From: Amoebophrya sp. A120
Taxonomy: Eukaryota > Protista > Dinoflagellata
Length of the DNA: 64,000 nucleotides
Direction: 5' to 3'
Assembly (NCBI GenBank): GCA_905178155.1
Contig: CAJINV010000010.1
Span: 521,851-585,850 of the forward strand
The position numbers and the translations under genes were made by a program. Shown here in pieces: positions 10,601 through 62,302 of this stretch. The notes beneath the pieces are model-generated. The model ran no database searches. It had not been told where the DNA came from and worked only from the letters and a program-made list of their open reading frames with translations. How positions within the stretch are numbered: position 1 is the stretch's first letter; each line of letters begins with the position of its first letter.

Positions 10601-13600
10601 TTGTACCTCTGGCCCCGGTTGCTCCACCTCCCCGTCTGCATCCACGTCAACTTCCTCTCCTTCATCATTCTCCGCTGCTGCATCCTGCTGCTGCTTCTGC
10701 TGCTGCTGTAGTAGAGCCGCGGGTTGCTGACCCACCGCCGTGGTCGAAGTGGTAGTAGTTGTCGTGTTGGTGTCATTTTTGTCTGTCAAATTAAACCTCG
10801 CTGTGAGGGTCGTCGTGACCTCTCCCGGCTCTCCGGTGAACGCGTTCCCGGCTGGCATGGGCTCTGTCGGCGAGAGTCCGGATCTAGCGAGCGCAAGGCC
10901 GACCGACGGCTGGTCCGCACGGCTGAAAACTGCGTAGTACCTGTTTTTTTAACATCCTGTAGTTTGTTGGTCCTCTCGTGTGTAAGAATGTCCAGAAAAC
11001 AGGTCTGTAGCGCGCATGGCACTGTCCTGCGAAAGAGTGAGCGCACGGTGCGCACGAGAGATAGATGTGTTTGAAGAAATGTTGAAGTGACTGTATCAGG
11101 AGCAGAGCAAAGTACTAAAGCTTCTAAATCTAGTAGAAAGTTAATAGTTAGTACTTCCGCATGAAGGCCATTCCCGCGACGATCGCGCCACCCGGAATGC
11201 TTTCATTCGGAATGTATCCTGGGCAAAAACATCCCCACCCCAGAGTCAAGATGGGGACCTCGCAACACAAGGCGAGAAGTTTTGGGAGTCACGCATGACA
11301 ATTTCCTCTCTGTATTGTAGTGCATGTGCAGTTTAGCAAGCGCAGCAGTGGAGCATAAAGCACTCTACTCATCCTGTTTTACAGCATTACAAAGTTCAAA
11401 ACGCGATTGGAAATGCCTCTCATGGGGGTGCCTCAGCTCTTTATATGATTGACTGCAAGTCCAAATCTGCCTGACAACTATGGGGTGGGGACGTTTTTCA
11501 CTCAGGATAGAATGTCCAAGGGCGTCATTGCCAAACTGCACATCATTTCCCCCTGGTCCACCTCTGCGAGACTGCTCGCGCCGCCTTCTGCACCGCGAAG
11601 CCTGCTCTTTGACAACTTCAATTTTCGTCGGGCCGCGGCGGACGCGGACATTGTTGTTGGCAAAGTCGCAATCATGTAGTCGTCCCTCGTCAACCGCATC
11701 GGCCGCACCTATCAAATGCAAAAGTATCGTACGGTACTCGTAGAAATGCATCACAAATTTTCTCAGCATGAAAAATTAAATTCGTAGTGCGGATTTACCT
11801 TAAGGAAGAGATTTGTAATGCATGATTGCAATTACTACGAGTACGATACTTTTGCACAGGATAGCACCTCCCCGGCAGCATTTCTCAAGTGAAACGTCAG
11901 ATCCGCGTAGATGTTTTGTTGGTACGCCACGTCGCGGCACCGCCGGTCTGGCAACAGCCGTTTTAACTCCCGGTAAACATGTTTTGGAATTGTGAACAGC
12001 CTGTATCCACTGCAAATGTGTCAGTCTGTGCATGGAACAGTGATTTGAAACTTGTGACGCTACTATAGGATTCTTATTCTAAAAAACGCTGCATTTTTGC
12101 CTGAGAGAGCAGTAAGAGGAATCAAGTTTTTGCTACGCGGACGAGAGGGCAACATTTTTCATGCGGGATAAGTTGATCAAGAAACACACAGAAAATCTAA
12201 TGATGCTAGGGCATACTTACATCATGAGAGAATCATCCTCATGCATCATGCACAACGTGCATGACAAACATTGCACTCTTCCAGACCCAGATGACATCAT
12301 ACATGCAGTTGATAGACTGGTGCCGGAATCTATGATGAGGTTTTTCACTGTTACGGGGATATCGTGATTCCGCAGCTTTTTCTCATCCTCCGGGGACAGA
12401 CCACTACCACCGGGAGAATTATATTTGTATGCATTGCAAAGGCATCGCATCGTACTAGTATGAATTGCATTACAAATTTGCTCAGCATGAGATGAACTGG
12501 AATTTGTCATGCTGTTCTACCTTAAGGACAAGACTCGTCATTCATAATTGCAAGTAGTACGTGTACGAGTACGATACTTTTGCACAGGATAACTTGCCCA
12601 CTGGGTCGATATTATTTGCCGTTTTAGAATCTTCCTGCTCGCCAGTGTTGTTGTTGGTTTCGTTGGACGATGTTGTACTGTTCTTTGTCGAATTGTTGGA
12701 CGATGGGTCGTCACCGAGTGTAGAAATTGTCCGGCTGCTCCCAGTACTGGTGCTCACGGAGTGCTGTTGGTGACCACGCTGGCCGTGATGGTGCACCGCC
12801 GCTTTTGATGTAGACAACCCCGATTTGGAGGTTCTCAGTTGTTCTGTCGTTGTAGTTGTTCCTGCGAGATGTGGCTCTTGTTCAGAGGCTATTGTTGTTG
12901 TACTACTTCTCGCTCCGTGAATATAATTCTCCTGTTCTTCTTGCAAAGAAGACGTGCTGTGTCGGTGCACAGCGATACCCGGCAAGGAATTGGAATTCAT
13001 TTTCGCATGATGATCCGTAGTCTTCGCATTCGCACGCCGGCTGTGTCGAACAAGTTGCACCTGCTGCTGAGGTAGTTCAGGCTTGGCTGCGGCTGGTGTC
13101 GGCCAGTTGTGTTCTTTATTCGAAACCTGTGAAGAATCATCCGCATCGAAAGATTACTTTTACAATTGCCAGCTGACATACGCTACTTCTCGTTCTCCCT
13201 GAGGTGAAACCTTTACTCCACATGAATTGCATTCTTGCAAAAAAACCTTGCACCTGGGCGCAGAGCAGGAGGACAGATCCTAAGTACTTCAAAACAAGAT
13301 CACATCTCATAGAACAAAGATAGATACTTACCGACGGTCTCGTCCCCACGACCGCCCGCTGCCTCTCCTGCCGCTTTTTCTCCCCGATCCTGACTCGGTA
13401 CCGGTGCATCTCTATCCAAGGAAAAAAGTGTTACAGATACACATTTGTAATGAACTCAGCATCACAAATTTGCCTCGCATGACGGAGAAAACTTGTAATG
13501 CAGAGATCATAAGGCAAAACACACACGAAACGAGACCCGCAAGCATTTTGCGCATGACAGAGGTCGTCTGCCTTGGGTGTTTTGCAACACAATGTGTAAG

Positions 13601-16600
13601 TGTAACACTTTTTTCTTTGCATAACCTGGTCTCTCGCCTCCCGCAAACTGACCATAGACATGAGCTCTTTACTCGACTTCCGGATTCGGTTCAGGTGCTT
13701 CGCATGAAGATCATCCATCTCGGCGGTGCTACTGCTCGTCGTCCCTGAAAAATGCCGTGAAGATGCACCGGACGTCGATGAACTTGTCTCTCCGATTTGC
13801 AGAAAAGACGTACTAGAAGTAGTAGTGCCTACTTGGTCTTGTTCAAAACTTTCGCCTTCGTCTTCCTGGTCCTGCGAAGAAGATGATTTTTTGTCCTTTC
13901 CTTCGCCTAGAATCTCTTCCATCAGCACTTTCCTAGCAACCGACAGCATCCGCGGCTTGACCACCCCAATCCGAGTGCTCCGTGTCGACGCTTTATTTCT
14001 TGTACTTGGCTTGACCGGACTCCTCTCAGCATAGTACTCTTCCGCCAACTGATCCTCCAGATCGGGCGTGAAGAGATACCGCACAACGTCTTCCGCAATC
14101 TTCGAGAGCTCCTTATCCAGCACGTTGCTTGTTGTACTAGCAGGCGCTGTCTTCTGTTTTTCCCTCCTCGTTGAGGTTCTTCTACCACCTGCTCCCGTCG
14201 TGGTTTTTCCGCTGTGCAGGGACGAAGGAGAAGCGGAGGAAACAGTAGTACCAGATTTATTCGCAGAGGAGCGACCCTATCAAGTGTAAAAATGTCTGGG
14301 TCTGGAAGAGTGCGCGACTTGTCATGCAGCTTTTCCATGACCCATGAGGTCTGGAATGCAGGACCTAGCATGACAGATTCTGTGCGATCTTTCTCATGCC
14401 TGTCCTGCATGAGAAACTGCCTCCCGACTTGGTCAAAACTGGACGACTTTTGGTAATCATGCAACACAGATTTTTGCACGCTGCAGATTTAGCATGACAA
14501 GTTGCATTCTTCCAGACCCAGACATTTTTACATTTAATAGACCCGACGTCCCGAAAATTGCATCCACAATGTCCTTCAGAGGGTCAGCGAGAGTTGTATC
14601 TCCTGCACCTGGTTTCATTTTCACCTGATTGCCGTCGTCCTGCACCTCCTGTCGCCCTGCTGTACTACTACTACCCGTGGTTGCCGTTGGAACAACTGCG
14701 GCGGTTGAGTTGCTTTCCGCGCTGGACAGCACTCTCTGACTTTGTTCCCTGTCCTGACCCGCAGCCAGCCCCGTGCTGTCTCCGAAAATGTCCGCGAAGG
14801 GGTTCTCGTCGTTTTTTTCAGCGGTGGTCGTTTATCAAATGCAAAAGTGTCTGGGTCTGGAAGAATGCAAGTTTGTGATGCTTGTCTGGCATGACTCGAG
14901 AATCTGTGTTGCATAGGCACGAAAAGGCCCTCTTACCTGTCATGCGAAAATGCAGTTTTCCATGCGGAATACGTATAGACATGGCAGCCAAGAAATTTGT
15001 CATGCATAGCTGCGCACTGCGGTGCGTCTATCATTCACTTTTAGCATTACATACAAGCTTCCAGACCCCGACATTTTTGCAGTGCATATGGTCGTTGTGG
15101 GAGCCACGTCCTCACTCGAGGCGGCGTCAGACCCGAAAATCCCGTCACCACCGCCAGCACCGCCTAGCGCACCAGCTCCGTCCCCGCCAAACAGTTTCGC
15201 GATGATATCGAGAATCAGAGGTATGGAAAGAAAAAAGTTTGTCACAGTCACTAACTTGCAGCTTTTGCATTACAGATTTTCTTAGCGTCACAAATTTTCC
15301 TTGTATTGCAGAAACACTAGGGAAACCTCCTATGGAGTTTAGCTGCGATGCATTTTTACGCATGACAGAAAGTTTTGTATTGCAAAAATGCGCATGAGCG
15401 ATCGTGACAAACTTTTTTTGTTTGATAAGAGGGGACAAAGTGGTAGTAGAAATTGTCGTGGTGTACATCGGAATCTGTTTCTGCCTTGTATGGATTGCAA
15501 ATATGTCTGGGTCTGGAAGATTGTAAACTTGTAATGCTGTCTCTGTATTCTAAAAAAATTTGTATTGCATGACCAGCAAGAGGACTCCAGTTTGTGTTAC
15601 GCGGACGAGAGGGCATTTCTCATGCGGTAGAGGCATCACAAAGTCCTCCAAAAATCTGTGATGCTAGGGCATGCATCACAGACATCGCGGGTCATTCAAA
15701 ATATGCATGACAAACTTGGCAATCTTCCAGAAGCAGACATATTTGCACTTGATACCTTGGCGCGCTGTACAACACCGATCTTTCCCCGTCCATTTCGACC
15801 AGGGAATTCGCTAGCGTCAAGTCCACCAACTCCACTGCCCAGTAGCGTTGGTGGACCACCGGAAACATCTCGATTTTGTGCCCCGGCTCGACGGCATCCG
15901 CAAAAATTCCGCCGATAGTGAAGACAGAGTTCTGCTCGGGCAACTTCGACAGGTAGAAGGAAAATTCCGGTTTGGTGAGCACGTTTGACTTCAACACGTT
16001 GTCAAACCAGGGCCGGGTGACCCAGGCGAGTTTCGTGTTTGGGTTGAAATTTGTTGTAGACGAGGAAGATTCATCCGATGGTGCGCCGCTGCCTGTGGAG
16101 TTACTGCTAGAATTCGAGGTGCTGTTCGTAGTAGAGGTGGAGTTCGTAGTCGTGCTGTTGGGATCGTCTTTGTAGCTGCTGTGCTGGGTCTTCAAGGCTA
16201 GTTGTTTTCTCTGATTCGCTCCTTGCATGCCAGCGTTGCGGTCTGTTGGGAAGTCGGTAGTTGATTTTCGGTTATAATTTTGTGAATACCATCAGTTGGT
16301 AAGTAGTTTGTTCTGTTTCTGATTGACGTAAATTGCACGAGAGGATGGATCAGGTTGGTGAACTGGAGCTAGAACTAGAAAACCGCACATGACAAAGATG
16401 AAACACACGACTTACTGCAGATGCAGATGCAGTCAGGAATTGAATTTTTACAAAGCATCAAAATACTCAAAAACGTTTGCCACGTCCCAGAAGACGACTC
16501 GCCCTTGAACCAGTCCCGGCCCTTGTGAATCAAAACGTTTGAATCCCCATTCAAATCCGCTTCGACCTGCTCCGTCGCTACTAAATCCGGGAATTATCAA

Positions 16601-19223
16601 ATGCAAAAGTGTCTGGGTCTGGAAATTTGTGATGCTGGGTGGCGTATCATGAGGAGAGGATGCCACAAGTGCTGGCTCAGCATGACAAGTTTCTGAGCTT
16701 CGTTCTAGGTGTTGCCTACTCTGCATGACAGACTGCGTTTCTGCATGACAGAAAAGCGAGGCTCTTTGGTATCGTGCATGACAGATTTAAGAGTCATGCC
16801 AGACAAGCATGACAAACCTACCAATCTTCCAGACCCAGACATTTTTGCATTTGATAGGAATCCCAACCCGACAATCCCGTCGAAGTCGTCGCCTTCGAAA
16901 ATTTCCCCGACCGATTCGTAGATCAAATTGAACCCCTGGCCGAAAACGGTGACCGGGCCGATTCGGACGTCGTCGTAGCCCCGAACGCCGGACAAAACCC
17001 CAGAACCGAACACCGACCCCACTTTGCAGAGTTGCTCCTCTGCTTTTATTTTGCGGAGACGTTGATGGCCGCTTCGGTGATGAAACTTTTTCATCTTCCC
17101 TCCTGACGAAGTAGCACTAGACTTCTTCTTTTTCATCTTCACTGCAGCGACGTGCTCCTTTCCTCGGTTTTTCGCCTGTTTTTTCTTGGAAATTGCTTTC
17201 TTGGAAGCAGAATTCCGCGATTTCATCCTCTGCTGCACGTTTGTTCTGCTTGTAGAAGCGACCTGCAGGAAATTGCTAGAGGGCTGCGTTTTTGATAGAG
17301 CGCCCGTTTCTTCTACTGTTTCGTTCTTCACCACCACTTCCAACGGCTCATCAGTGTCGCTGCTCTGCTTATCGCTCTTCCCCTCCACCAAGGAACTCGC
17401 CTTGCACAGCCGCGAGGTCAAGGAGTGATTCGGGTCGTAACTTCCAGCCGCGCCGCCCTTCACAATGTCGGACTTCACCGCGGACAACCAGGTGTCTGAA
17501 GTATCAAGTGCAAAAATGTCTGGGTCTGTAAGAATGCATGTTTGTCATGCTTGTCTGGGATGACTCTTCAATCTGACATGCACGTTACCCAAGAGCTCCA
17601 TTTTTCTGTGATGCAGAAACGCAGTTTGTCATGCAGAGGAGGCAACACCTAGAAGCTCAGAAACTTGTCATGCTGGGCCAGCACTTGTGGCCTCATCATG
17701 AGAGGCCACCCAGCATCACAAGTTTCCAGACCCAGACATATTTGCAATTGATATGAAGACCCCGTGTCCAAAATGACCCGCATCCGCGCCTGGGGCTGGG
17801 AAAAACAGTTTTGGGCGAAGGAGGAGGTGGCTTCTGCACCATCAGTGCTGGTTGTATTCATTGCCTGTTGGTCAACAACATCCTGTGCAGTTCCTGCTTT
17901 CGTCGAGTCCGTAGCATTGTTTCCTGCCTCCTCGTCCCCGGATGAAGATGAAAGAAGACTTGTCACTATGAAATGCAAAAATGTCTGGGTCTGGAAAAAA
18001 GCAACTTGTGATGCAGATTCTGGAACAGACAAAAATCTGTACTGCGTAGTCAGCAAAAGGTGCCCGATTTTTGTTTCCCGAAAAACGTATTTGTCATCAG
18101 GAATCGGCATGGAGAAGCTCCTACCACAGAGTTTGTCATGCTCTGAGTGCATTCCAGATTTTTTTGTAGATGTAAAAAATGCATGACAAATGTCTGATTT
18201 CTTCCAGACCCAGACACTTTTGCATTTGATAGTCACTACCTTTCCGCAATTCTCGTCACCGTTTTTCGCCATCGCCTGGCCGATGTGAATGGTCGCGATG
18301 TATTCCATGTCGTAGTTGTTGGTCAGTTCCACCTGCCCCGCCGCCCCGAACGCGCCCCGTTCGTGCGGGAGGTGGTGCGATTGGGAGGAGAGGAGGGTAG
18401 CGGTCGCGTTTGTTCCATCGGTTTTATCGGTGGTGGAACTGTCTGACACAACTTCCGTGTCGTTTTTCACAATCCTGACCCCGTCATCCTCTTCTCCGAA
18501 CAGCTTCGAAGAATCGAACCCGGTTTCCGACTCCGCAACGTCATCCAGGTCATCCAACGACTGCTGGCGGTTGCTGTTTTTCAGAGACTTCGACTTCGGG
18601 CGCTTTGGGGAGGAGAGTGGAGGGGTTCTTGTTTGCTTCCGTCTAGAAGTGCTGCCGGAAGCGCCTTTTGCTTTTGTACTAATACTAGTTGTAGAGCGGT
18701 GCTTCTTGTCGTGACCTGATTTTTTATCCCCGGCCTTTTTCTCCTGTTCTTGACGCTTTTTATCTGCCTTCTTTCTCTGCTGTTCGCCGTAGCTCCTTTT
18801 TTGCGGCTTTTTCCTTATTATCTTGGCTGCCGGGCTTGTGTGTATCTGCTGATTGTCAGAAATCTTGTCGTGTACCTGCAGAAAAGACGCCAGGACTTTA
18901 GGCCTGGCGATATGGTCCCGCATGTTGGCAGTAGATTCCGCATTTATAAGTGCACCAACATGAGGTTCTCTTTCCTCGCCAATGCTATTTTCGTCGCTGT
19001 GCCACACGTGATGGTGCGTCAAGGGGCTCCGGCGCTCCAGCGGGACTGTCAGCTGTGCCGCTTGTCCGTCGTGGTACAGAGCGGTCGGACCTTTTGCTTC
19101 GCCGTTCTTGCCAATCACCTCTAGTACTGCAGGCGAGAGTAAGTACAGCTGCAGGAGTTTTTTCACTAGAAGTCGAGCGGCGAAGGGTCGGGAGATGCTT
19201 GTTACCGGCACCATTTTATGCAT
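7641..19223 (-). CDS. Pepsin-family (A1) aspartic protease, plasmepsin/TgASP-like, with long low-complexity inserts and an acidic C-terminal tail; 15 introners plus GT-AG introns
   Basis: Spliced motifs in order: ELTNNYDMEYIATIHIG, RVILDTGSS|DTWL, FDGIVGLGF|P, FSFYLSK, YWAVEL, LIIDSGTSL|FTIP, CSLAMTPLDI|P, AGMAFMRK|YYAVFSRADQPSVGLALA. The frame continues into the E/Q/D-rich ORFs down to 7641. Confidence 0.85.
9172..9407. mobile_element. Introner family D (236 bp)
   Basis: TIR TATGGCGTTCTCAAACGTTACATTCTCAGCTGTTACATGAATTTGT; TSD GACCA. Confidence 0.95.
9542..9807. mobile_element. Introner family A, diverged
   Basis: Left end TGTG; TSD CTTCT/TTTCT. Confidence 0.85.
10039..10306. mobile_element. 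Introner family A
   Basis: Family A TIRs; TSD TCCTT. Confidence 0.95.
11215..11509. mobile_element. Introner family C
   Basis: Family C TIRs; TSD GAATG. Confidence 0.93.
11710..11863. mobile_element. Introner family E (154 bp)
   Basis: TIR TATC...TGCAAAAGTATCGTAC; TSD GCACC. Confidence 0.93.
12004..12314. mobile_element. Introner family A, diverged, inside the DSGTSL motif
   Basis: TSD GCCTG/GACTG. Confidence 0.85.
12428..12591. mobile_element. Introner family E
   Basis: TSD ATTTG/ACTTG. Confidence 0.88.
13413..13623. mobile_element. Introner family B
   Basis: Family B TIRs; TSD ATCTC/ACCTG. Confidence 0.88.
14278..14539. mobile_element. Introner family A (262 bp)
   Basis: TSD GACCC. 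Confidence 0.95.
14833..15088. mobile_element. Introner family A with an 8-bp TSD
   Basis: Flanked by TGGTCGTT on both sides. Confidence 0.9.
15222..15427. mobile_element. Introner, B-like variant (206 bp)
   Basis: TIR TATGGAAAGAAAAAAGTTTGTCAC; TSD AGAGG. Confidence 0.9.
15489..15754. mobile_element. Introner family A
   Basis: TSD CCTTG. Confidence 0.95.
16595..16856. mobile_element. Introner family A (262 bp)
   Basis: TSD GGAAT; splits GLGF|P. Confidence 0.95.
17502..17753. mobile_element. Introner family A (252 bp)
   Basis: TSD TGAAG; splits DTGSS|DTW; close copy of 44924-45175. Confidence 0.95.
17967..18231. mobile_element. Introner family A (265 bp)
   Basis: TSD GTCAC. Confidence 0.95.
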
Positions 19224-20094
19224 TTTTTCAAATTTTTTAATTTTGTTTTTTACATTTCCATCCAAGGCTACAATGAATCCTTCAAATAAGCAGCTTAAGG
19301 AAAGAATCTTGTACAACTCAGTTGTAACTTTCTCTCTACCAAGACGAGAAGCCAAACTGCAGCGCGACTCAAGCACGAGTGCACAAACACAAGCGACTCT
19401 AACCTGCAAAGCGATTCATCGTCTCGATAGCAGCTCAATCCGCTGCCATCGCTGTCTCTCTCGAAATGAAAGGTCCTACATCAAATCGTGCTACGTAAAC
19501 CCACTCGGACCCAATACTAACGACCGCTCTATCTAAAGCAAGATTGACAAACGGGTCCTGGAACAAACAAAATGTTAACTCGAAAGAACTTAGTACGGTC
19601 GTGGGCCGCGTAATGTGATCCATGTTTCTGTATCGGTGCTTCAACTTCACATGCACCAGCAACAGCAAGTGCTTTGCAATATAATGTCGTCCAGCATGTT
19701 GCGTTTAAAACAACTGATGTCCATCTTTCCCGCACAAGAATGAGACATGTAGATAAAAAACCTATTCCCAGAACCAAAAACGCTACTCGCTCTATACTTA
19801 CACTAGACTCAGTTGGTTCGCCCCGTGCTGGTGGTTCAAAGCATTCTATAGTACGACGAACCTCTTCAAACCAGCACTACCTCCCCCGCTAAGCGCTAAA
19901 AAAGGCCAGGGTGTACAACTAGGGGGTCAATGTGCCGGCACCAGCTCAGGAAACAACCAAGAACTGTACGAGATTGTTGTTCATCTGCGGACATACATCC
20001 TCGAAGCGCGGCTCAATGGGAATAAAATTAGTCAGTCTAATGGTTGTTTTATCTACTTTTACTTCTCTATCGGGACGATACTGAAAAGATGAAC

Positions 20095-42758: not shown

Positions 42759-43638
42759 TTTTTTTTTTCCAAAGAAAAAACCGGCAGAAAATAAAATCAA
42801 TATGATGAAGATCAAGTCGATTGTTCGTATATATAAATATATAGTCGGTAGACAGGATAGAGGTGGTGAAGGAGTCAGTGGTCTTGAGGAAGAAAAGAAA
42901 AAGTAGTTGCGATTGCTGTTACTGTTTCCACTATAGAAGGTACTTAATTATGTGTTTTCGCCTGCTTTCTTCAAGAAAGGGATTTGAAGGTGAAGAGTGT
43001 AGTAAAGGAGCAAAGGCGCAATAAATCCTGCGAAGCTGATGTGTGTTGAAGAGTATCAAGTACTAGTTGTAGGGGCGTCTAGATAAATACTAGTAGTTGT
43101 AGGGGCGGTTGGTGTATTTCGTGAGAAGCGAGGCACCTGCAGTTGCAAGTAAGACAATATGAGAATCAAACTCTGAGCTCGATGCAAGTAGTTGCAACGT
43201 CGACATAATTTCATCTTGGTCCAGCAGATTTTTCACCAATCACCGAAAAAAGCAAGCTCAAAACTGGAACTGCACAATTTAGATGTAGAAATGTTCCCGA
43301 TTATTTCTGATCATGATCAATTTACGTGGCGAAATTTCAATTTCTCGGATCATGATCTTGTTCCACCGATGAATCTATTGTTTCGTTTTCTCTGGGCACG
43401 AAACGTAGACGCTCGTGGGCGCCGACGGATTATGTTTTGATGCTTCTTGTTGCATACTTCTGTCCGTAGAACAGGATGGCCTGCGGGCTGCATCTACTTC
43501 ATCTACACAACTTAGCGAGTGCTAGATTGTAGTTTGAAAAAAAGCTGACATGGATGCTGAGGTACATCAAAAATGTCTGACCTACCGCCGGGCGTCGGCG
43601 TCCATTGAATTGATACCAAACATGCTGCTTACTTAGAC

Positions 43639-46600: not shown

Positions 46601-48735
46601 CGCTCGGGTTGTTTCGATGCTGCTCCCCCTTTTCTACCAGCAGCGTGCTGGCATATGCAGAGTTCATATTCTTGTCGTTTTTCACGGTGCTGTCCTTGAG
46701 AAGAACGTATGCATATTGCAAATATGACGTCTGGGTCTACGGGAAAGAAGTTGAGCGGGTATCAATAAATCTTGAAAACAACTGAAAAAAAGTGTACCCT
46801 GCACAGCCACGCATGACGAGTTTTGCTGGAATGGCTGTGCGGTACCAGTTTGTTTAAGTGCAAATGGAAATAAAACGCGGGCCACCAAAAGCTACAATAT
46901 TCCAAGATTGCAAATATCTGCCACTTGCCACAAAAGAAAGACCCACACGCCATTAGAGTTCTTTCCAATACTATCCAACGAAAAAACTGTTTCACTGTGG
47001 TAATTTTGCAAGATCTGCAACACAAGTTTGTTACACATGACAAAGAAAACTTGGCATGCGTGCTTCCTAAGGGAAAACACAGCTAGAAATCCAATGTGTT
47101 GCATGTGTAGCAAGACAAACACATTTGCGTTCCGTTCTATGCATCACAAGTTTACAGAGAAACAGTTTTTTCTCGCGATAAATGCGTAGTATATCGTCCT
47201 TCGCCACATTCGCGGTCTCCCGCAGGTCCTCGCTATGAGAGTGCACAACCTCCCCGCCTCCCCCTCATTTGTATTGCATGGACAGCAATGCAAACACCCG
47301 CACATGTGGGGTCCGTACATGACAAGTTCGCGCGCGTAATGTAGTACTGTTGGGGCTCCTTCCGGAAAAATCTGTCATGCAAATAGTACCACAGGGCAGC
47401 GCTTGGATTTGGTATTTTGCATGACAAATGAGGGAGAGGGGGAGTTCTGCATTGTCATACTCGCACTGCGCCGCGTACTGGCGGGCCTTCAGCCTTTGGA
47501 ATATGGCGTTCTCAACTGTTATATTCTCAACTGTTACATGAATTTGTGATGCAAGAATGGCAAAAGTGATAGGAGAGATCTTGCGCGTCTTGCATGACAG
47601 ATTTGGCGCCGATTATCGGCCTGCTTGGCCCTCTGAGAATTTGTCATGCGAAGCAGCTTGATGGTGTAGATTCTGAAGGCAATTCTGCATGACAAATTCA
47701 TGTAACAGTTGAGAATGTAACGTCTGAGAACCCCATATGGAAGTCCTGCTCTTTCGAAAACGACCCGTCCCGCTATGCAATACAAATTTCCATTCCCGCA
47801 CATGTACAAAATGCATGAAAAATTTCGCTAATTTACTTAGAGTGTCAATAAAAATGTCATGCTGGTTAAGATTGAACTCTTGCAGGGAAGTTGTGTCATG
47901 CAGAAACAGCATTTTCGCTCGTCGTGTGGGAGAAATTTCTTGTGGATACCCGCCCCGTCAAGCACATGAAGCCCCGCTGTCCGGTCTGGCTCGGGTCGCC
48001 CAGATTCTTCAGCCGTTGCTCCGCGTCGACCTTATTGGCTTTACTCACCAGGTCTTCAAATTTGCCGGATCGCTATGGAATGGAAATTATCTGTCTGGGT
48101 CCTCTGGAAGAATGCAAGCTTATTTTTTTCATGCTTGTCATTTCACCTGGCTGCTAAATCTGTAATGCAGGAGCAGGAGTAGAAAAGCCTCGCGCCTGTC
48201 ATGAAAAAATGCAGTTTGTCATGCGGAAAGCGAAACACATATAGAAGGAGCTCAAAATAAACTTGTCATGCGCGGCTGTGTATTGCAGTTTCTTCCCACA
48301 ATTCAGAAGCTAGCATCACAAGTTTCCAGACATCCAGACACACTTGCATTTGGTAGCCGCAGGTGGTCTGCGATTTCCAACTCCTTCTCCGTGATCTCGA
48401 GCTGCAAATCTGTCTGGATGTCTGGAAGAGTGGAACCTGTATTGCTCGGCCTGCATATCTGTAAAGTCTGTGTTGCGTGACTGAGAACAGAAGCGCGGCT
48501 TCTTTCGTCAAGCAATATTATGCAGTTTCTAATGCGCGCTACGCATGAGAAGGAGTAGCTTGTCATGCTTGGCTGCGCTCGAGAAAATGCTCGGCAATGA
48601 CAATTCAGCGCCACAAGTTTCCAGACCCAGACATATTTGCAATGCATACGTGATCTCGGGCTGCAATTCATGCGGCTGCAGGCGATCGTCACGCAAGCAG
48701 CCCGTGAAGTCGGCCGATGAAGTCTGTTGGGGCAT
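43639..48735 (-). CDS. Phosducin-like / thioredoxin-domain protein (TXNDC9/PhLP3-like) with an N-terminal extension
   Basis: DELALLREKRKEQLRREQQMTQHW|KSQGHGVLRDIASEREFF..ERSVVLLY..IRDILASLAK|KHLETQVFQLEEQKAH|FML..LPILFL. The 5' part from 48735 is joined by inference. Confidence 0.7.
43718..44058. mobile_element. Introner family G (341 bp)
   Basis: TSD GCTCG. Confidence 0.88.
44719..44868. mobile_element. Introner family E (150 bp)
   Basis: TSD AAGTG. Confidence 0.93.
44924..45175. mobile_element. Introner family A (252 bp)
   Basis: Left end TCTC; TSD CTTCG. Confidence 0.93.
45215..45425. mobile_element. Introner family B (211 bp)
   Basis: TSD GCGTT/GCGGT. Confidence 0.92.
45711..46510. 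mobile_element. Introner family C enlarged to 800 bp by a nested insert
   Basis: TSD TCCAG; 13-bp duplication TGACTATGGGGTG flanks 45993-46473. Confidence 0.88.
46972..47180. mobile_element. Introner, B2 variant (209 bp)
   Basis: TIR TATC...GAAAAAACTGTTTC; TSD AATAC/AATGC. Confidence 0.88.
47234..47459. mobile_element. Introner family I (226 bp)
   Basis: TIR TATGAGAGTGCACAACCTCCCC; TSD CTCGC. Confidence 0.9.
47502..47737. mobile_element. Introner family D (236 bp)
   Basis: TSD TGGAA; inverted relative to 9172-9407. Confidence 0.95.
47774..47948. mobile_element. Introner family J (175 bp)
   Basis: TIR TATGCAATACAAATTTCCCA; TSD CCCGC. Confidence 0.85.
48074..48355. mobile_element. Introner family A, diverged
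   Basis: TSD ATCGC/GCCGC. Confidence 0.85.
48395..48648. mobile_element. Introner family A
   Basis: Left end TCTC; TSD CGTGA. Confidence 0.88.
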
Positions 48736-49690
48736 GTTGTGATTTATTTCTTAACTCAAAACAATGTTTCAGGTGTATCAAAGCAGAGAAATAAACACAG
48801 CGCAGCTCGATTTTTCACCTCGTCTTGATGCCCCCTCGACGTCTACTTCTAGTACGGGGTAGGTGGCTCATTTCGGTAATTTTTACGTATGTTACATGGA
48901 GAAAAAAGTTGCACAGTTGCACAGTGTCGGAGTCGAGAAAGACGTTGCAAACACACCGGAGCTTCGTGTTCCTTCTTATTCCTTCTACCAAAAAAAAACG
49001 GTGCGACAAGAGGCCAAATGTCGCCTGAAGCCTAAGGGCATTTAGATCTTGCTACTCCGGCTGTGTAAAAAAGCGAGCGGCAAATAATGGATGAAGAACA
49101 GTGTCGGCAGATGAAATTAATTCTGTCCATCACCGTATCAGCGATGCAACTGATACGCGGAGATAATTGGCGCATGAAAAATCACGACACCAGACACAAG
49201 ATGCTCCATGCTGTTCTTCCCTCGCTTTATTTACTCAAATGATTTTTTTATCCCCGGCGCAAGAAGAAGGTTTTTCTACTTGCCAAGAATTTTGCTATAC
49301 TTGTTCCAACATGATACTTGAAATGTGATGATCAACATCCGGCTCTTGTATCACGACCAACTGTGCCGTGTGCCGTGTGCTACTAGCAAATCCTTTTTTC
49401 GGATTCAAATTGAAATTGATTGCTATCGGTGTCATGGAAATAAAAAACTATATCTTGTTGTCCTGTCGCTAGTGCAACTACAAGTGCAACAAGCGGTGAT
49501 TTTTACTACAAGTTATCTTGCTCTTCCTTGTTTCTGAATCGTGATTTAACTCTCTTCGCCGTGACCTGAGTGAGGATATCGACGAGCCACTCTATTTTGA
49601 AAACAAAAACATTGAGATGAAGCGCTTGACTTTGTAAACAGTATTAAATCCATTCGAAAAAATCATCTGCAGCACAGAGGTGCTCATCAT

Positions 49691-49899: not shown

Positions 49900-50113
49900 A
49901 TCACTCCTCTGTCTCTACTGCTGGGGGTGTTAAGAAATCAAAATTTTGTTGTCTGAAGTAGTAGACGGCTCTACTCGTCTACTCAAGTACATAGGAGAAG
50001 ACACCGCGATGCATCTTATGGTTTCTGTTTTCTGTGACAAAAAAGTGTGCAAAAGCTTTCAGAATAGCAAAGCCCGCGTGAGAAATAAGTATTCTTGGGA
50101 GAACTACAAAGCC

Positions 50114-53100
50114 TCACATTGCCATGTTCTCTTTCAACCAGGCGACGACCTTGTGCTTCATTTCTTTATCCGACACGCAGTCTTCGAGCCGCAGCGGCTT
50201 TTGCGTGAGCGGGCACACCGATATGCATTGCAAACATGTCTGGGTCTGGAAGAGTGCCACGCTTGTCATGCAGATTTTACATGACCCATGACGTCTGTAA
50301 TGCATAACCTGGCATCACAGATTTTTAGCGGGCTTTCTGATGCCTATCCCGCATGAGAGCTGCCCTCTCTATGTAGCACAAACTGGACCCCTCTTGCTGG
50401 TGGTCATGCAATACAGATTTTTTTCGAATGCAGAGACAGCATCACACGTTGCAATCTTCCAGACCCAGACATATTTGCATTTGATAACCGAGCCGCACGA
50501 CTCAATCCACTTTTCCAGCGTTTTCTTCTCGAAGTAGTTGCCGTAGGGTGACCGTATCGGGTTGGTCATGTATGAACTGCAAAAGCATCGTACTAGTATA
50601 AATTGCATTACAAATTTCCTCAGCATGAGAAATAAAATTTGTAATGCGGATTTACCTTGAGAAAAAAATTGTAATGCACGATTGATAGTCATATCTACAA
50701 GATCTTTGCAAGACTTGCGAATAATTCAAAATGCTCAAGAGTTCAAGAGTTCAGTGCATCTTTTGAGTTCGGTTCACCCTTTGAGTTCAGTTCACCATTT
50801 GAGTTCAGTTCACAACTTGAGTTCAATTCACTATTTAAATTCAGATATCTTCAAGTCATAACCTCATACTCAAAAGATTCGAATCTCAATTCTCAATCTC
50901 AAATCATAATCGAATCATCTCAAAAGTCGCAACTTCTTATCTCATCTTGGAATCATCAACATCTTATCCTATCTTAAAAATAAAGTCATAATCTTCTCAA
51001 AGTCATAGTCTCAATCTTCATAATTGAATCGACGAGCCTTCATCAAGATGTCAGTCTTCATCTCAAAAGTCATAAATTTAGATCTTGAAGCTTTAATCTT
51101 ATATCTAAAAACTATTCATATTACAGATCGGGGCGCAATATCATCATATCGCAAGGGGGGGGGGGGCGCGGGGGGGGGCGAGGGCCCCCCGCATGTAAGT
51201 CTTCATCTCAAGAATAAAAATCATTCATACAGATTGAGGCGCAATATCATCACATCGAAAGGGCGGGGGGGGCGCGGGGGGGGGGCGAGGGCCCCCCGCA
51301 TTGAGTCTTCATCTCAAAAGTCAGAAATTTAGATCTTGAAGTTATAATCTTATATCTAAAAATTATTCATATTACAGATCGGGGCGCAATATCATCACAT
51401 CGCAAGGGCGGGGGGGGCGCGGGGGGGGGCGAGGGCCCCCCGCATGTAAGTCTTCATCTCAAAAATAAAAAATAACTCATACAGATTGAGGCGCAATATC
51501 ATCACATCGAAAGGGCGGGGGGGGCGCGGGGGGGGGCGAGGGCCCCCCGCATGTGAGTCTTCACATCAAAAGTCATAGGCTTAGATCTTAAAGTTGCCAA
51601 GATATCTGCAAACCAACGAGACTGCCCAGGGAAGGAAGCAAACGCGGGAGCAGGCTGAGGCCCATCAGGCTATAACAAACCATGGCGAACATCTTCGATC
51701 GATCGGAAATACGGCGGCAGCTACTCCGGTAAAAAGCCGCTCACAATCTTCTTTCATTCATATATAGAAAGCAAAATCCCCAAAGGAAGTCTGAATAGAG
51801 CGCGTATACATTATGACTATATCACAAAGAGACCTGTCGGCAGGACTTCTAAAAAAAAAACCAACCGGACACGTCGACCCTAAATCTGCCAAGATCTATG
51901 ACCAGTGCAGCGCTGACGTCGGAAGCAGTGCGACATCTGGCCGCACCGTAGAAAATGCTGCGTCGATGGCGTCCGTATAGTCTTCCGAGATTCCCACGAC
52001 TTCGTCCAGAAAAAATTTCGCCCGATGCCACGAAATCAGCCACCAGTCCCCAGTCGCCAGGCGAACACGATGGCGCTCGCTTTCCTTCTGGCGCTTCGGC
52101 TTCTGCGAGGTGAAAAACCACGACACAATGTGGCCACTGGCGGCCTTCGAATCCCCGGCCCAAATGTACTCCGCCGCAACCCCCCTAGCGTTCGGCTCCC
52201 TGTGCTCCTTCTGCGCACCCGTGCGCCGGTGGTAAATGACATCCCGGCGAATTGGCGCAAATCGGCCGCGCTCGCGCGAACCATGCTCCTCCTTCGACAT
52301 TGTGTGCGTGGCGGCTAAGTATCTGAATGTCTTCAAGAAACTAGAAAATAAAAGCGTAGCAGGAAAGAAAGACAGCTTGCTGGAGGAAAAAAATAAAAGC
52401 GTTGGCGGCGATCATAGATCTAAACTAATGCATGAAGATGACAACAGAGGCGCACTGCAAACCAACGCTCTGAGTGCAGTCTGCATGGGTGAGACGGAAA
52501 TAGGTGGTCGCTGTTTGGAAATAGGATGCGCATGGCCGAGGGCATGCGATATATAAGACAAGACTTTCAACATGAGCGGCCTACGCGCCTACCGCGGCTG
52601 TTTTCCGCTCTCCGGCACTCTACGGTCTAAAACGATCCACGGCGCGACGATTCAAGTGCGGGCCACTAGCGCAGCCAATTTAAGAACGTAATCAAGTCAA
52701 TACTCCAAGCCTACGGCGGAGATCCAAGCGCCTGCTAAGTACCTAGAGCGATCGGGCATGGGGCTAAGGCGTTCGACTTCTATCTTCTTTCAAAAGAGGG
52801 CTCGGCCTGCTGCAAGTATGCGCCGTCCCCCTAGCGGGGGCAGGTGGCGGCGCGCATGCATGTTCACGCGGAATCTGCCCGAGGTGTGTCCCCTGCCAGG
52901 CATGATTTACCGCCCCGCGCGTCGTGCGCTCGGGTCGCGGTGTCAATCGCTTCCAGATCAGATGCTGTTTGCAGTTTATGCCAAGTTACGTCGCGCTGCC
53001 CCGTGCGCTGCTTCCCCGCCCCAGACTGTGAACTCTGTGAAAATTGCTCTTTCTAGCGCAAGTTTGCGATGTCAAACCGAGCGGGCGAAGCTATTCGAGT

Positions 53101-56100
53101 CTCGTTGCAATTACTACGAGTACGATACTTTTGCACAGGATATCATGACCTTGCCGTCGATCTCGCAACGGAACTCCGGTGGTGCGTTATCCAAAGGAAA
53201 AAACCCCCCTCCCCATACTGAAAAGGTATATGTTTGGAGATTTGTGATGCTGATTTGTAGTCACAAATCGTATCTGTCTTGCAAGAAGCCAACTCCGCAG
53301 GCTCCGCCGCATTGTGCAGGCGGTTTGTCATGCTCTTGGGCCTACAGCGCGATTTTTTTTCATGCTAAGTGCCTAGGCCAAAGCCTCTCTATTCACACTT
53401 AATATGGGCCTGCAGTGCTCTCCAGCATGACAGCTCGGATTTGTGTACACACATCCAGCATCAGAAACTTCGTTTTGATATGGGCAGGGGGGATTTTTCC
53501 ATTCAATATGCGTCGATGAGTGATCGCGAGGCGATCTTGATCTTGCCCTTTTCCTTCTTCTCGCTTATGAAATGCAAATATGTTCGGGAGGTCTGGAAAC
53601 TACTTGTAATGCTGAATAGTCAGGATTGACTGTGCCTTTAAGCGCAGTACAGCATGACCAAATTTTCAAACGCTTTCTCAAGCGCAGAACGCATTACAAA
53701 CTGCGCTTTTGCAAGACGAAAGCGAAACTGTAGCGCTTTACATATAATTTGCTGTGTACTGTACGCAATACAGATTTTTTAAATATGCGACACACGCAAT
53801 ACAGGTTCAACCTTTCCAGAACCAGACGGCATATTTGCAGTTGATATCCTTTTTGTTTTCCTGATTGGTGTCCAGGGCAGGAAGGTCGCCCAAGTTTGTC
53901 TGGTCGTATTGGCTTGTTGCCGGGACGGCCTGCTGCTGCGCTTGCTGCTCGGCGAGCTGTATGAATTGCAAAAATGTCTGGGTCCGGAAGGTTGGAACTT
54001 GTCATGCTGAATCTGAATCACGCAAAACTCTGTGTTGCATGATTACCAAATGCTGCCTACTTTTGATCAAGTTGAGAGGCAGTTTTTTCACGCAGGATAG
54101 GCATGATAGTGATCTCACGGAATCTGTCATGCTAGGTCCTCCATTACAGATCATATGGGTCATGGAAAACCTGCATGACAAGTCGAGCAAAGTTCCAGAC
54201 CCGGACATTTTTGCGTTTGATAAGCTGTGCCGCCTGCTCCGCGGCTTGCTGCTGCTCCATGAGATCCCTGGTGGAGGGGTGGTAGATAAAAGAATTTGGG
54301 TTTTATTCTTTTTCAACATGCGGGGGCGGTGCTGTGTGTTCGTACGGTACTTCGTGCGTTCACTTCATTCACCTCTGGGGGGTGAAAGTGAAAAAACGAT
54401 AGCTAAATACTCTCCTGCAAAGAATCAAAAGTGACGTTGTATACAGGTTTTCCCTTTCCTGTGCCACTGCTGCGGGGTCGTACTGCGTATTCAAAACTTG
54501 CCCAGACAGGGAGGCCAGCTGCTCTTCAAAAATTTTCGCTTGGAGCTCGGTGTAGGGCACCTTTGTTTTTAGATACCAGACTTCACTTCCTCCGCTGTCT
54601 TCTTCACGAGTAAGTACTTACTATGAGAGTCTCATGCAAAAAATGAAATAGGTTGCAGCGAGTGTATTTTTTGCATTTCATCATCCAAAAATCACTATAG
54701 TACAAATAAATACGCAGTCGTCCATTATGAGTGGCTGCCCGCAGATTGGGTCTGTCGCACTAAACTGTAGCCAATCCGCGAGCGCTTGCCGGTCGAAGAC
54801 GTGGCCGTAGGGGGTCTTTACTGGGTCCGTCATAAACGCGCCCGACAACTGGCACAAGGCGTCGTTGTCCGCGTTTTGCTGTAACTCCGTACCGGGTTCC
54901 TGCTGGTACTGCTGGTCCTCGGGATTTTGCCCTTGCCCACTGCCATCCTCCAATATTGTTTGAAAAACCACTTCATCCATCACCTTCACCCTCAGTCATT
55001 TTTGTCATATTATGAGAATTGGTGAAGTCAGGCAGGTCCAAGTTTCAATGTCTACACGGCCACATACTGCAACATGAAGCGAGTGCGCATGACAGATTGT
55101 GGGTTGTCGATGTGATGGTGATTTTGCAAATTCGATATCCATTTCCTCTGTGTCTGACTCTTCTTCGCTGTCGAACATGCTATCTGTTTTGAGAATTTGC
55201 GAAACAGTTATTTCTCCTCTCCCCTGTGCTATCGTAGTATCGGTGTACTTAGCTGCTTCACAAGCTTCACAATACATAGCGACAGCGAGGACGATAATAT
55301 GCATGACAAACAACTCGCTTTTTTACCTTTCTCCTTCTTTCGGACCCACTGCAGGCCGTATTTTCCATTTCGTTTTCGTGTTCGATTCTTGGTTATGGAA
55401 AGGAAACCAATAGTTTTTTCGTACTTAAAGCCCACCAGCAAGAATCATCATGCCTCATGCCTACCTTTCCGCAAGAAGGGCGCGCTAAGTTTTGTTTATT
55501 CTCTGTCACCCGGAGGTTCCAAAAACATCCTAGTCGCTCACGCACATCTTGAGCTGCTGTGGCTTTAATAATGTGAAACCATTTACATTGTTTTCCCATC
55601 CCATACTCTTTCTTCTCCATTTGCTGCGCCCTCTGCCCTCCTCGTCGTCACCCGTAACTGAGTTTTTGATGTGCAGTTGTGTCAACGACAACGTCAAGTA
55701 TCAATCTGCATGAAAGGCACGACTTGTGCTGCAGACATCGCATTACAGATCCGCGCCTGCTATTCAGAAAAAAGACGCGGGCCGCCTCTCCAGCAGCACA
55801 GCTGTGGTCGTCGCAGCCTGCAACAGAACTGCTCGCACAGCCACCCGCAGGACCCCGCGGTTGTGCACTGCGAACAGCGTGTGAGCATCCCGTAGGATAT
55901 GCCGGGCTGCCGCCGGAGCGATGGGTTGTAACGCCGTTCCAAACAGTGTTCCTACCCACGTGCTTTCATTTTCTTACAAATGGAGGATCGGGTAGCCAGA
56001 ATTGCTTTGCTAAATACTACGAAGAAGTAGATTCGGAGGAAACTACTGCAAAGCGGAAGCACGAGGTTCGGCTACAGAAGTTGTTAAGTACCAGCACACA

Positions 56101-60001: not shown

Positions 60002-62302
60002 TCACGTTGCCATTCCCCGCAACTGCGCCACCAGGGCGAGCATCCTTGCGGCGAACGCCTCCAACGCAAAAATCTCCTTTCCCGATTTCGCGATGGACAC
60101 CGTGTAAACGCTCGCGACGTTCCAGATCTGATCCGTGATGGCCGGCGCCATCTCCGCCATTTGCACGCAAATGGTTTCGAGCACCAACTGGGCACTGATC
60201 GTGGCCGCGAGCAGGGTGTAAAACTTCGCCCGGATCTCCAGCACCGTTTTTGGCACAAAGGGCCCGCCGAGGAGGGACGTGGCGATGGACTTGCACAACT
60301 TCTCCCACGGCGCGTCAGGAATCTCCTGCATCCACTGCGGCTGCTGCTGGTTCGCCATCATGGTGACCATCGTTTCCAGAATTAACAGCGCTTTCCGCAT
60401 GTCCTGCCTGCAAGCGTGGACGATTTTTTCGAAGTTGGTGATCCCGATCAGGTTGTGCAGATTCTCCTTCTCGAGCGTTTTCTTCAAATTCGCAACTATC
60501 TCCCCCTCGCTCGGCAACGGTAGTCGGTACACGTAGCAACGCGACTAGTATGAGAGTTCATAACTCCCCCTCATTTGTATGACATAAAGAGCATTACAAA
60601 CACCACCCAGTACAGGTGGACCGTGTGCATGACAAGTTTATGCGCCGAGTGTAGAAGTACTGTTTGGATTTCCGGAATTTGTCATGCACGCGGTGCCACA
60701 AGGTAGCAGCTGGATTTGGGTTTTTGCATGACAACTGAGGGGGAGGGGGAGTTGTGCACAGTCATAACTGGATGGGAAGAATCATGGCCCCGATGCTGTT
60801 GGAGACGAAAATGAACCGGTTTGTCTCCGTATCCAAGACAAAAACGTTGTTAGTGTAAATTTGTGATGCGCAACATGAGAGATGACTGCGTCTGTCATGC
60901 TTGGCATGCATTGTAGGGTTCATTACAGGGCGTTTTCACGTACTATCTGCGCATGACAGGTTTTTGCTGTCATGCCAGACAGATTTGTAATGCTGTTCCT
61001 CCAAAAAAGATACACCTACAATGTTTTTTTCTTGGATACTCCGATCGCACCTCGATCAGCCGGCGCAGCGCGGTCTGACACTCGTTTGACAGCTTGTCTG
61101 CACCTTTAAGAATCACCACCTTGAAGGCCGCGCGGTTCAGCTGTGAAAAAGAATAAGAAGTGAATGCGAAATATAATATCCAGGGCTTCGTCTTTGTGTC
61201 CTGCACAACCTCAGTGCGATTCAGTCGCGCGAGGATCATCTTAATAAGTAAGTACTATATGCACATCAATTCTACTCATGTCGTAGTCCGTGCTTCAGCT
61301 TCATCGCGCGTCAACGTCGAACAGTTTGTTGTGAAAGAAACACCTAACACTACAAATACCGGCCGCTCCCCGGTGAACTCTTTGAGCAAAGTTTTCGCCA
61401 CTTTGACATCTTTGATTCCCACGTCAGACAGGTTGATTTCCATGTGAAACAGCGAGGTTTTGGCACAAATCTCAAACTTTCCACTGCCCTCGCCGCAGAT
61501 TCGCATTTTGGTCGTGTTGTCGTCGATCGAGTGCCCGAAAATCTGCCGGAGCAGGGCGTAGACCTGTGGAGTAGAGGGATTAGGTTTTCCATTTGTTCCA
61601 CTTCGCTCGTATGGCAAGACAAATTCAAATTCCAACCATGCTCGGTGGCAATCATGCAATACAATTTTGAGTTTCCTGTCGTAGTATACATTCATACATG
61701 GTCTATACCCTGGTCATTTTCCCAGCGCCATTTGGTCCGTACAACAGCAGATGCGGCAGCTCTTTCGACTTCGCCGCGTTGAGCATGAGACGCGAAAACT
61801 CGCCGTGGAAATCCATATCGTCCAAATATTGCGGCTGGTACTTGTCCACCCACAGCAGCGACGGGCCCTCCGCGGAAGGTTTCGTCACGATTCTTCGTTT
61901 CTTCAAAACGAAAAAGTCCTCCTTGCTAGCCGCCGCGCCGTCGTTTTGGTTTATTCCGACAGCAGGAGGAGCCATGGGGTGGAGACCACCTGTTGTCCCA
62001 GAAGTAGAGGAAGCCCCGGCCACCGCACCACCGTCTTGCTGATAATTCCCCGTCGCCATTAGCAGTGGGTGCGGTTTATTTTCAGTGGTGGCATCTGCTG
62101 CAGCGGCACTACCTGCAGCTCCACTATTGGCTGCGAACAACCCCTTAGCAGTAGTACCTGCGGTGCTGGAAGAGGACGAAGAACTGGCGCCGCCCTGGTT
62201 TGTGGTCTGCTTCGAAGAAGTTTGCTTAGAACCAGCCGGCCGCTTCATCGGCTGGGCCGCAGTGGTGCCCGGCTTCGGGAGACCCAGGAGACTACCCAAC
62301 AT
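60002..62302 (-). CDS. RFC3: Replication factor C small subunit (human RFC3 / yeast Rfc5 type)
   Basis: LWVDKYQP, LPHLLLYGPNGAGKMT, FKVVILKGADKLSNECQTALRRLIE, ILPIQ|SRCY, DMRKALLILE, LEAFAARML. Confidence 0.9.
60549..60766. mobile_element. Introner family I (218 bp)
   Basis: TSD ACTAG/ACTGG; sits immediately before the SRC motif. Confidence 0.92.
60830..61038. mobile_element. Introner, B-like variant L (209 bp)
   Basis: TIR TATCCAAGACAAAAACGTTGT; TSD CTCCG. Confidence 0.9.

Follow-up and report, generated by a model that had tools for sequence, protein, structure and literature searches.

Introns of Amoebophrya that lack GT-AG ends raise two linked questions: where exactly they are cut, and by what machinery. 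The removal of tens of thousands of such introns was left open in the 2021 paper (PMC7789003). The window analyzed here, a 64,000-nt stretch of the genome of Amoebophrya sp. A120 (contig CAJINV010000010.1, positions 521,851 to 585,850), carries 61 TAT…ATA inverted-repeat (TIR) elements in minus-strand genes, each bounded by a 5-nt target duplication (TSD) that is perfect in 41 cases and mismatched in 20. From such mismatches, a first-pass annotation had argued that the splice junction falls after base 4 of the duplicated pentamer, giving an intron of the form N-TAT…ATA-NNNN. All positions below are those of the window, and the introns whose spans are given lie on the minus strand.

The elements are TIR insertions with 5-nt target duplications

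The 61 curated elements span positions 911 to 63776, make up 28% of the window, and are assigned to minus-strand reading frames in 60 cases. Perfect 5-nt copies flank 41/61 of them, compared with 0 to 3 of 61 at lengths of 2 to 4 and 6 to 10 nt, in a list that was itself partly picked on TSD agreement. TSD-blind calling on related loci gave perfect 5-nt copies in 214/282 elements versus 1/282 at 4, 6, 7, and 8 nt, and the 5-nt duplication is thus far above chance. Element length has a median of 261 nt. Among 267 elements, families of 74, 33, 29, and 22 members occur at unrelated gene positions, with orientations relative to the transcript of 40:34 in the largest family and 18:15 in the second. 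A TIR, a constant TSD, short length, and both orientations, which together characterize MITEs, are therefore all present. One element (46972 to 47180) even lies inside another, after nucleotide 8 of the 5' TIR of the outer element (46708-47188), with its own TSD of GCATT/GTATT. A search for a transposase in three frames of one 2.6-kb candidate gave no Pfam match, and the element end was absent from the viral contigs searched. On this evidence, each element is a transposon with TIRs that duplicated a 5-nt target on insertion.

These elements are almost certainly the A120 introner elements published in 2021, and so were already known, which the annotation had not noted (Farhat et al. 2021, PMC7789003). 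The published introners share inverted repeats that start with TAT followed by a run of A, repeated families, and removal from RNA; their direct repeats are given as 3 to 5 nt, whereas those in the window are uniformly 5 nt. Their borders are described there as "unknown" and their splice sites as "variable."

Transcript contigs place the junction after base 4

RNA evidence came from the transcript contigs of a single run (X4), for which 15 of 46 joints were displayed; all 11 element joints among those displayed skip the element plus 5 nt. Excision of each element with exactly five duplicated bases is confirmed at these joints. Three further joints (31664 to 31825, 34950 to 37269, and 34958 to 37284) connect element interiors, probably through cross-mapping from copies elsewhere, and were set aside. 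In raw-read runs X8 and X10, coverage was essentially confined to the element-free gene at 40.8-43.1 kb, and run X9 comprised 9 reads.

Four elements are informative about the position of the junction within the pentamer. The sets of TSD bases after which it may fall are 2-4, 3-6, 4-6, and 4, and the only position common to all is base 4; were junctions uniformly distributed, the probability that all four sets fit one given offset would be 0.014. The four agreeing elements span at least three sequence families. One of them, at 48074-48355, pins the junction alone, the other three giving ranges. Its TSD copies are GCGGC/GCGAT, the mRNA reads GCGGT, and the joint from 48069 to 48357 skips 287 nt unambiguously, exactly after base 4, so that the intron (48070 to 48356) reads C-TACCAA…ATTCCATA-GCGA. 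Here the annotation had preferred LRSG over LRPG, taking base 5 from the downstream copy, as the RNA does. In an AMP-binding (acyl-CoA synthetase-like) gene, the intron at 31581 to 31884 (element 31585-31883, TSD TTTGT/TCTGG, joint 31580 to 31885) permits a junction after base 2, 3, or 4; base 5 therefore again comes from the downstream copy, giving the anticipated DLAF rather than DLSF. The outer element of the nested pair (intron 46704 to 47189, TSD TATAC/CGTTC, joint 46701 to 47188) permits base 4, 5, or 6, which places base 4 in the upstream copy. At the intron 33997 to 34282 (element 34001-34281, TSD TCAGC/TCCGC), the inference draws on a contig piece that stops at 33994 rather than on a displayed joint; it implies upstream base 3 and hence TISC rather than TIRC, as had been argued. 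Across mismatched TSDs, where the annotation had called for cDNA reads, the contigs show an upstream base 4 at 46708, a downstream base 5 at 31585, and both at 48074. An intron N-TAT…ATA-NNNN with its junction after TSD base 4 is supported by the four informative elements in the contigs of this one run, being compatible with all four and fixed by one.

Three of the cited sites were assessed from the DNA and its translations. At the predicted RFC3 intron (60545 to 60767, element 60549-60766, fold z of -3.43 with a terminal stem), the copies are CCAGT upstream and CTAGT downstream, and base 2 of the latter would indeed turn IQSRC into I-stop-SRC; the strain A25 RFC3 orthologue, 51% identical to the window gene, reads MILPIQSRC, in favor of the upstream base. 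In a pepsin-family protease gene, the predicted intron at 12000 to 12315 (element 12004-12314, TSD CAGTC/CAGGC) yields DSGTSL with upstream base 4 and DSGTRL with the downstream base, as proposed. DSGTS fits the pepsin-family motif D[TS]G[TS][ST]; an exon at 16858-17496, upstream in this gene, matches PF00026, and no homologue turned up when a low-complexity exon of this gene served as the query. The predicted intron at 9538 to 9808 (element 9542-9807) has the described base-5 mismatch, AGAAA/AGAAG, for EDEE versus ENEE. Base 5 is also mismatched at 37578, and base 4 at 12428, 13413, and 14833. Protein plausibility at base 5 proved a weak argument by itself, a DNA-only codon-likelihood test of the junction position giving no signal (base 4 upstream favored in 8/14 cases, base 5 in 7/17), and the point is carried by the RNA instead. 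Mismatches that would create a stop number three in the downstream copies and none in the upstream copies, though two of the three belong to calls with two mismatches, whose paired ends may not be genuine.

The two ends are constrained differently

Once the junction is set after base 4, the two symmetric ends can be compared in transcript orientation. The U at intron position +2 (TIR position 1, 5' end) is changed in 0 of 267 elements, and its mirror site at the 3' end in 8. The A at -7 (TIR position 3, 3' end) is changed in 2 of 267, both times to G, and its mirror site at the 5' end in 12. This asymmetry is significant (Fisher P = 1.4e-4, n = 267). With the first three positions unscored and perfect TSDs (n = 172), the counts are 0, 2, 8 versus 6, 2, 2 (P = 0.007); related loci alone give P = 0.021, and relaxing the threshold to TSD matches of at least 4 lowers the asymmetry to P = 0.020 while admitting one evident false call. 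A DNA-level constraint from a transposase would be expected to act symmetrically. What is new here is that the inverted ends differ in constraint relative to transcription.

Beyond these bases, the termini are close to background. As the annotation had held, the +1 base is free (G in 93/267 versus 30% background, P = 0.09) and there is no AG acceptor, terminal AG occurring at chance level (19/267 versus 6.7%, P = 0.71); GT..AG ends were found in 6/267 elements. No selection toward G+1 or AG was seen among the mismatches, where base 5 is G in 4 of 17 upstream copies and 8 downstream copies. Nor is a full YTRAY selected at 3' ends, positions 4-5 being symmetric and sense and antisense counts being 40 and 42 of 267; neither 5-mers with a strand bias nor YTRAY close to the 3' end held up convincingly after multiple testing. 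Purines make up 0.60 of first downstream exon bases, against 0.55 in the background. Pairing between the ends begins sharply, with +2/-5 paired in 59/61 elements and +1/-4 in 16/61, which is chance. Folding of whole introns is mixed across elements; at 48074 it is no better than in shuffles (z of -0.91), and the minimum-energy structure leaves the extreme ends unpaired.

A single geometry can account for the published variety of motifs

The sites termed variable in PMC7789003 fit a single register in the window, with asymmetrically constrained ends. The legend of Fig. S23 ("located at 1-5"), judged by its text alone, may hint at the same base-4 register.

Aligners can slide junction placement toward partial GT-AG matches. 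When such sliding was simulated on one geometry, the published motif diversity was reproduced (36.4% versus 36.6% in the 13 listed classes); leftmost placement (4.9%) and exact-canonical placement (11.9%) did not fit the published 36.6%. Table S4 of the 2021 paper, in which the predominant A120 classes are only NT-NN, was considered as independent support and rejected, since sliding toward partial GT-AG gives the same outcome. In the open-access full texts searched, we found no paper that fixes this junction or maps lariats.

Proposed mechanism and rival explanations

Both the floating of the junction and the reality of the joints bear on this geometry. It is improbable, in our estimate, that the junction floats within the duplicated bases or varies by family, as a figure of the 2021 paper suggests, and that the elements coincide at base 4 partly by chance. 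Such a reading would suit the single element that pins the site by itself, the loss of minority forms in contigs, the mismatched-TSD elements at 34929, 37245, 37578, 39002, and 45215 that have no displayed joint, the undiscriminating codon test, and the wording of PMC7789003; it is opposed by the concurrence of four elements from at least three families, by the invariant U precisely at +2, which implies a fixed register, by the result of simulated sliding, and by the stop-creating mismatches confined to downstream copies. Far less probable still is that the joints are artefactual, produced by reverse-transcriptase template switching between direct repeats at the hairpin base or by DNA alleles without the element. 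Hairpins flanked by short repeats do generate false introns, and the RNA nature of run X4 was only guessed. However, one contig lacks both three elements and a canonical GTAC…AG intron (30528 to 30908), with no other differences in the pieces listed, which marks the contig as spliced RNA; moreover, the 48074 joint has no microhomology, and reading frames such as that of RFC3 require exact removal.

The remaining question is what reads the ends. With the base-4 rule, a free +1 base, and no AG, the element ends themselves likely position the splicing machinery. On balance, we lean toward a relaxed U2-type spliceosome that removes the elements at fixed cuts, 1 nt before TAT and 4 nt after ATA. 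A120 is reported to retain 83/89 spliceosomal proteins plus U2, U4, U5, and U6, with U1 not found (PMC7789003). The rather less likely alternative keeps the geometry and assigns it to a dedicated nonspliceosomal or second machinery. A structure-guided nuclease with a ligase, of the kind proposed for euglenid nonconventional introns, would in that case recognize the stem of the TIR and make its cuts at the +1/-4 offsets. This alternative would account for fixed spacers outside the terminal stem and a longer 3' arm, as described for Euglena N3-CDG…CH'G-N5-6 introns (PMC12501133), for the sharp onset of pairing, for function in both orientations with G+1 and AG dispensable, and for the missing U1; a protein could likewise read U+2 and A-7 asymmetrically. 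Yet the conserved bases coincide with the host canonical donor register GTAY, and disruption of the +2/-5 or +4/-7 pair is tolerated when it comes from one of the two sides but not from the other, so base identity outweighs pairing. Removal is also exact despite a broken terminal pair at 29605, 48074, and 48395; the element at 29605 to 29866, for example, has a changed 3' terminal A (-5) and is still precisely removed (joint 29599 to 29867).

Under the spliceosomal reading, the 5' TIR would be read as a host GTAY-type donor minus its G (U+2, A+3, Y+4). Predicted canonical introns of the host, from a decoder that recovered the one RNA-confirmed canonical intron, have GTAT donors in 24 cases and GTAC in 13 (GTAY 37/79, versus 11% background; P = 1e-15). 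The annotation had the TIR end supplying donor positions +2 to +5; the likeness holds for +2 to +4, given the invariant U+2 and the host GTAY donors, and fails at +5, where the elements have C in 183/267 and G in 73/267 and the predicted canonical donors lack a consensus (C in 9/79). U at +4 has been described as favored under reduced U6 m6A. The TIR stem would draw the intron ends together, the branch point would likely be the A at -7 that opens the 3' ATA (often within TTGATA), and the 3' cut would be measured from A-7 or from the stem rather than located by AG. Branch points fixed at -8 are described in Entamoeba invadens. The symmetric end might thus serve twice, as donor and as branch site, in which case insertion nearly anywhere in an exon, in either orientation, would restore the message. 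This fuller version, a spliceosome without G+1 and AG needs for which the palindromic end is a donor read forward and a branch site plus 3'-cut ruler read backward, we put forward tentatively, as possible rather than probable. A preference for A at -7 is absent from the predicted canonical introns (21/79), so the proposed model needs a second 3' mode. The A-7 to G change in 2/267 elements, the lack of YTRAY selection, and the poor folding of 48074 also speak against this model.

With the register fixed and two bases constrained, the removal of these introns becomes open to direct test. If true, the base-4 rule would correct gene models genome-wide and explain how introners could spread through a genome almost free of cost. 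Under the fuller version, the record splice-motif diversity reported for Amoebophrya would reduce to one rule plus alignment ambiguity, and any insertion would become a perfect intron, whatever its exon site or orientation. For strain A25, this register (U+2, A+3, and a 3' arm longer by 3 nt) would lead one to expect introns of the form TTA…TAA-NNN.

Comparison with known systems

No spliceosomal class in the literature compared loses both G+1 and AG with any base at +1, which weighs against the spliceosomal model. The introner class 12 of Polarella glacialis, as described by Roy et al. (bioRxiv 10.1101/2020.10.14.339549), has a 5-nt TSD as here, and its NNAGG form builds the donor from the last TSD base and the first base of the element, which is the same after-base-4 register. 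That class needs an AG and a G from the target and works on a single strand; the Amoebophrya elements need neither and occur in both orientations.

The nonconventional introns of euglenids (Nomura et al. 2025, PMC12501133) and those of hemistasiid diplonemids (PMC12621601) are described with free terminal dinucleotides, paired ends, fixed spacers, a longer 3' arm, and a likely MITE origin, all as in Amoebophrya. For the euglenid introns, the authors suggest that removal is not spliceosomal (PMC12501133). The euglenid N3-CDG…CH'G-N5-6 signature is not matched by the N1-TAT…ATA-N4 elements: TAT/ATA stands at +2/-5 here, versus CDG/CH'G at +4/-6 or -7, and the spacers are 1 and 4 nt rather than 3 and 5-6 (PMC12501133). 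A need for a purine at the exon start, a feature of the euglenid introns, is not clear here, and the lineages are unrelated. Noncanonical introns of Fritillaria borealis (PMC11282704, PMC13326754) are described as MITE derived, with TIR and TSD, and removed by a modified U2 spliceosome; they keep preferred AG-AC and AG-AT ends, whereas here the +1 base and the last four bases are near exon background. The Amoebophrya elements would thus be an independent parallel to the transposon-driven shifts in splicing rules of euglenids and tunicates.

Transcript evidence for the splice junction

The first-pass annotation placed the junction after base 4 of the 5-nt target duplication (TSD; bases in transcript orientation), giving an intron N-TAT…ATA-NNNN, on the basis of mismatched TSDs in elements 60549 (RFC3), 34001, 12004, 48074, 31585 and 9542, each named by its left coordinate; all six mismatches and their translations are correct. 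Four runs were mapped over window region 29400-49300. The contigs of run X4 are spliced: one lacks the canonical intron 30528-30908 as well as three elements, with zero further differences in the pieces listed. Among the 15 X4 joints listed of 46, 11 take out an element plus exactly 5 nt and 1 is canonical; the 3 that connect element interiors were left out of the count. The X4 contigs reveal the major form only, and the raw-read runs are confined to genes without elements. One such minus-strand gene, 40813-43130, has high read coverage in X8 and X10; numerous molecules end at 40824, and a loose end with poly(A) lies at 40813. The one frame examined gave no Pfam match.

With ambiguity recomputed, the RNA allows a junction after TSD base 2-4 in element 31585, base 4-6 in element 46708 and base 4 exactly in element 48074; for element 34001, base 3-6 was deduced from a contig piece end. 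Base 4 is the sole position common to these four elements, as the annotation had proposed, and its assignment of base 4 to the upstream copy and base 5 to the downstream copy holds in 2/2 RNA-informative elements each. The orthologue in Amoebophrya A25 (51% identical, the sole match to RFC3 at the cutoff used) backs the predicted junction at 60549, and removal is exact in elements 29605, 48395, 48074 and 46708 (X4) despite an altered base at -5, -6 or +4 (counted from the intron end or start). Taken by itself, the base-4 geometry is highly probable. That the joints are an artefact is very improbable.

Element 46972-47180 sits in the 5' terminal inverted repeat (TIR) of element 46708-47188, after its eighth base, and both are missing from the RNA contig, which suggests either stwintron-like ordered removal or that seven paired bases are enough.

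A 2021 paper found variable splice sites and an unknown border (PMC7789003), and its Table S4 holds many motifs at 1-3% each. A floating junction, which would agree with such diversity and which the shared base 4 makes improbable, is not needed to produce it: most elements offer six or more equivalent junctions, and sliding to the best partial GT-AG match assigns 36.4% to the 13 classes that the paper lists, versus 36.6% published, where the noncanonical introns are not all elements. A single geometry can yield the diversity of Table S4, and the authors' pipeline need not have slid in this way. As support for base 4, the table was rejected, since one geometry plus sliding gives the same class share.

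Elements and target duplications

In this eukaryotic DNA, 61 curated elements, which make up 28% of the window, break up the minus-strand genes, nearly all of the elements starting with TAT and finishing with ATA; a codon model assigned 60 of the 61 to minus-strand frames. The 5-nt TSD is perfect in 41/61 window elements, a partly TSD-selected list, and in 214/282 elements called blind to the TSD at related loci (metagenome-collection assembly, same element families, ≤95% identical). Mismatches occur in 20 window elements, at bases 1 to 5 in 9, 5, 3, 6 and 4 cases. Across the window and loci L001-L079, base-4 mismatches involve G in 14/14 cases versus 36/68 at other positions (p = 0.0006, post hoc; 14/15 when the three-mismatch element 46708 is included). 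The G lies in the exonic upstream copy in 11 cases and in the intron-end copy in 3; it may be preferred at the exon end or avoided at the intron end.

A pepsin-family protease gene (11151-19415) carries long low-complexity inserts and ∼12 elements. The 2,572-nt element 50571-53142, with a perfect TSD and tandem C-rich repeats, shares its TIRs with a ∼150-nt family, of which it is possibly a longer relative. Segment 3915-6552 (2,638 nt) has a perfect 5-nt TSD and a distinct 20-nt TIR beginning TATG; its three long frames gave no Pfam match. Element-like ends at 37955 and 21311, with no clear partner or TSD, are covered by predicted GT-AG introns (38184-37945 and 21454-21170, respectively) and are possibly elements turned canonical introns, or decayed.

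Asymmetric constraint on the element ends

Border composition was assessed in 267 oriented elements (212 from loci, 55 from the window), those of the 356 assigned elements whose frame was confident. The +1 base is G in 93/267 (background, 30%; p = 0.09), AG ends 19/267 (background, 6.7%; p = 0.71) and GT..AG combine in 6/267, bearing out the annotated free +1 base and absence of a required AG. TIR base 1 is changed at 0 5' ends versus 8 3' ends, and base 3 at 12 versus 2 (5'/3' difference, p = 1.4e-4). A stricter set (bases 1-3 unscored, perfect TSDs, n = 172) gave 0, 2 and 8 versus 6, 2 and 2 changes (p = 0.007; loci only, p = 0.021), and tolerating one TSD mismatch gave p = 0.020 while letting in one evident false call. 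Because element calling was blind to strand, this asymmetry means that constraint tracks transcription and targets U+2 and A-7 rather than pairing. Within families, elements lie either way round with respect to transcription (40:34, 18:15, 19:10 and 13:9).

The annotation further likened the TIR end to positions +2 to +5 of a donor. Among 79 canonical introns predicted by a gene decoder supplied with only GT and AG, which found the single RNA-confirmed canonical intron and of whose predictions some are surely wrong, donors are GTAT in 24 and GTAC in 13 (background, 11%). The element N-TAT thus matches host donors at +2 to +4; the likeness does not extend to +5.

Possible mechanisms of removal

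A relaxed U2-type spliceosome, with A-7 as putative branch point, is the most likely agent. It would take U+2/A+3/Y+4 as donor and branch at A-7, and distance would define the 3' cut. In the second splicing step, G+1 pairs with the terminal G, so the joint loss of both is coherent. Counting against a spliceosome are A-7 changed to G in two elements, no selection seen for full YTRAY at element 3' ends, and predicted canonical introns without a fixed A-7. The main rival, a euglenid-like machinery that would be guided by the stem, is a more doubtful reading. Pairing of the ends, which begins at +2/-5 (59/61) and is at chance level at +1/-4 (16/61), favours it, and the constraint on U+2 and A-7 rather than on pairing counts against it. 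The whole-intron fold is strong for 60549 (z = -3.43) and not for 48074 (z = -0.91).

Comparison with known systems

The elements themselves are already known, and their ends in the window agree with the A120 introner description, TAT and then an A-run (PMC7789003); with the RFC3 match, this points to an A120-type organism. Our literature search found no paper that settles the junction in Amoebophrya or describes an asymmetry of the ends, with Fig. S23 of PMC7789003 judged by its legend; that legend, reading "1-5", may anticipate the base-4 register. In the A25 column of Table S4 (PMC7789003), the nine predominant classes all begin with TT and have free 3' ends, which would place U+2 and A+3 in a register shared with A120. 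For the preferred spliceosomal reading, Entamoeba invadens offers a parallel in its branch points, which are fixed at -8. Polarella class 12 has the same after-base-4 register, but AG and G are required there.
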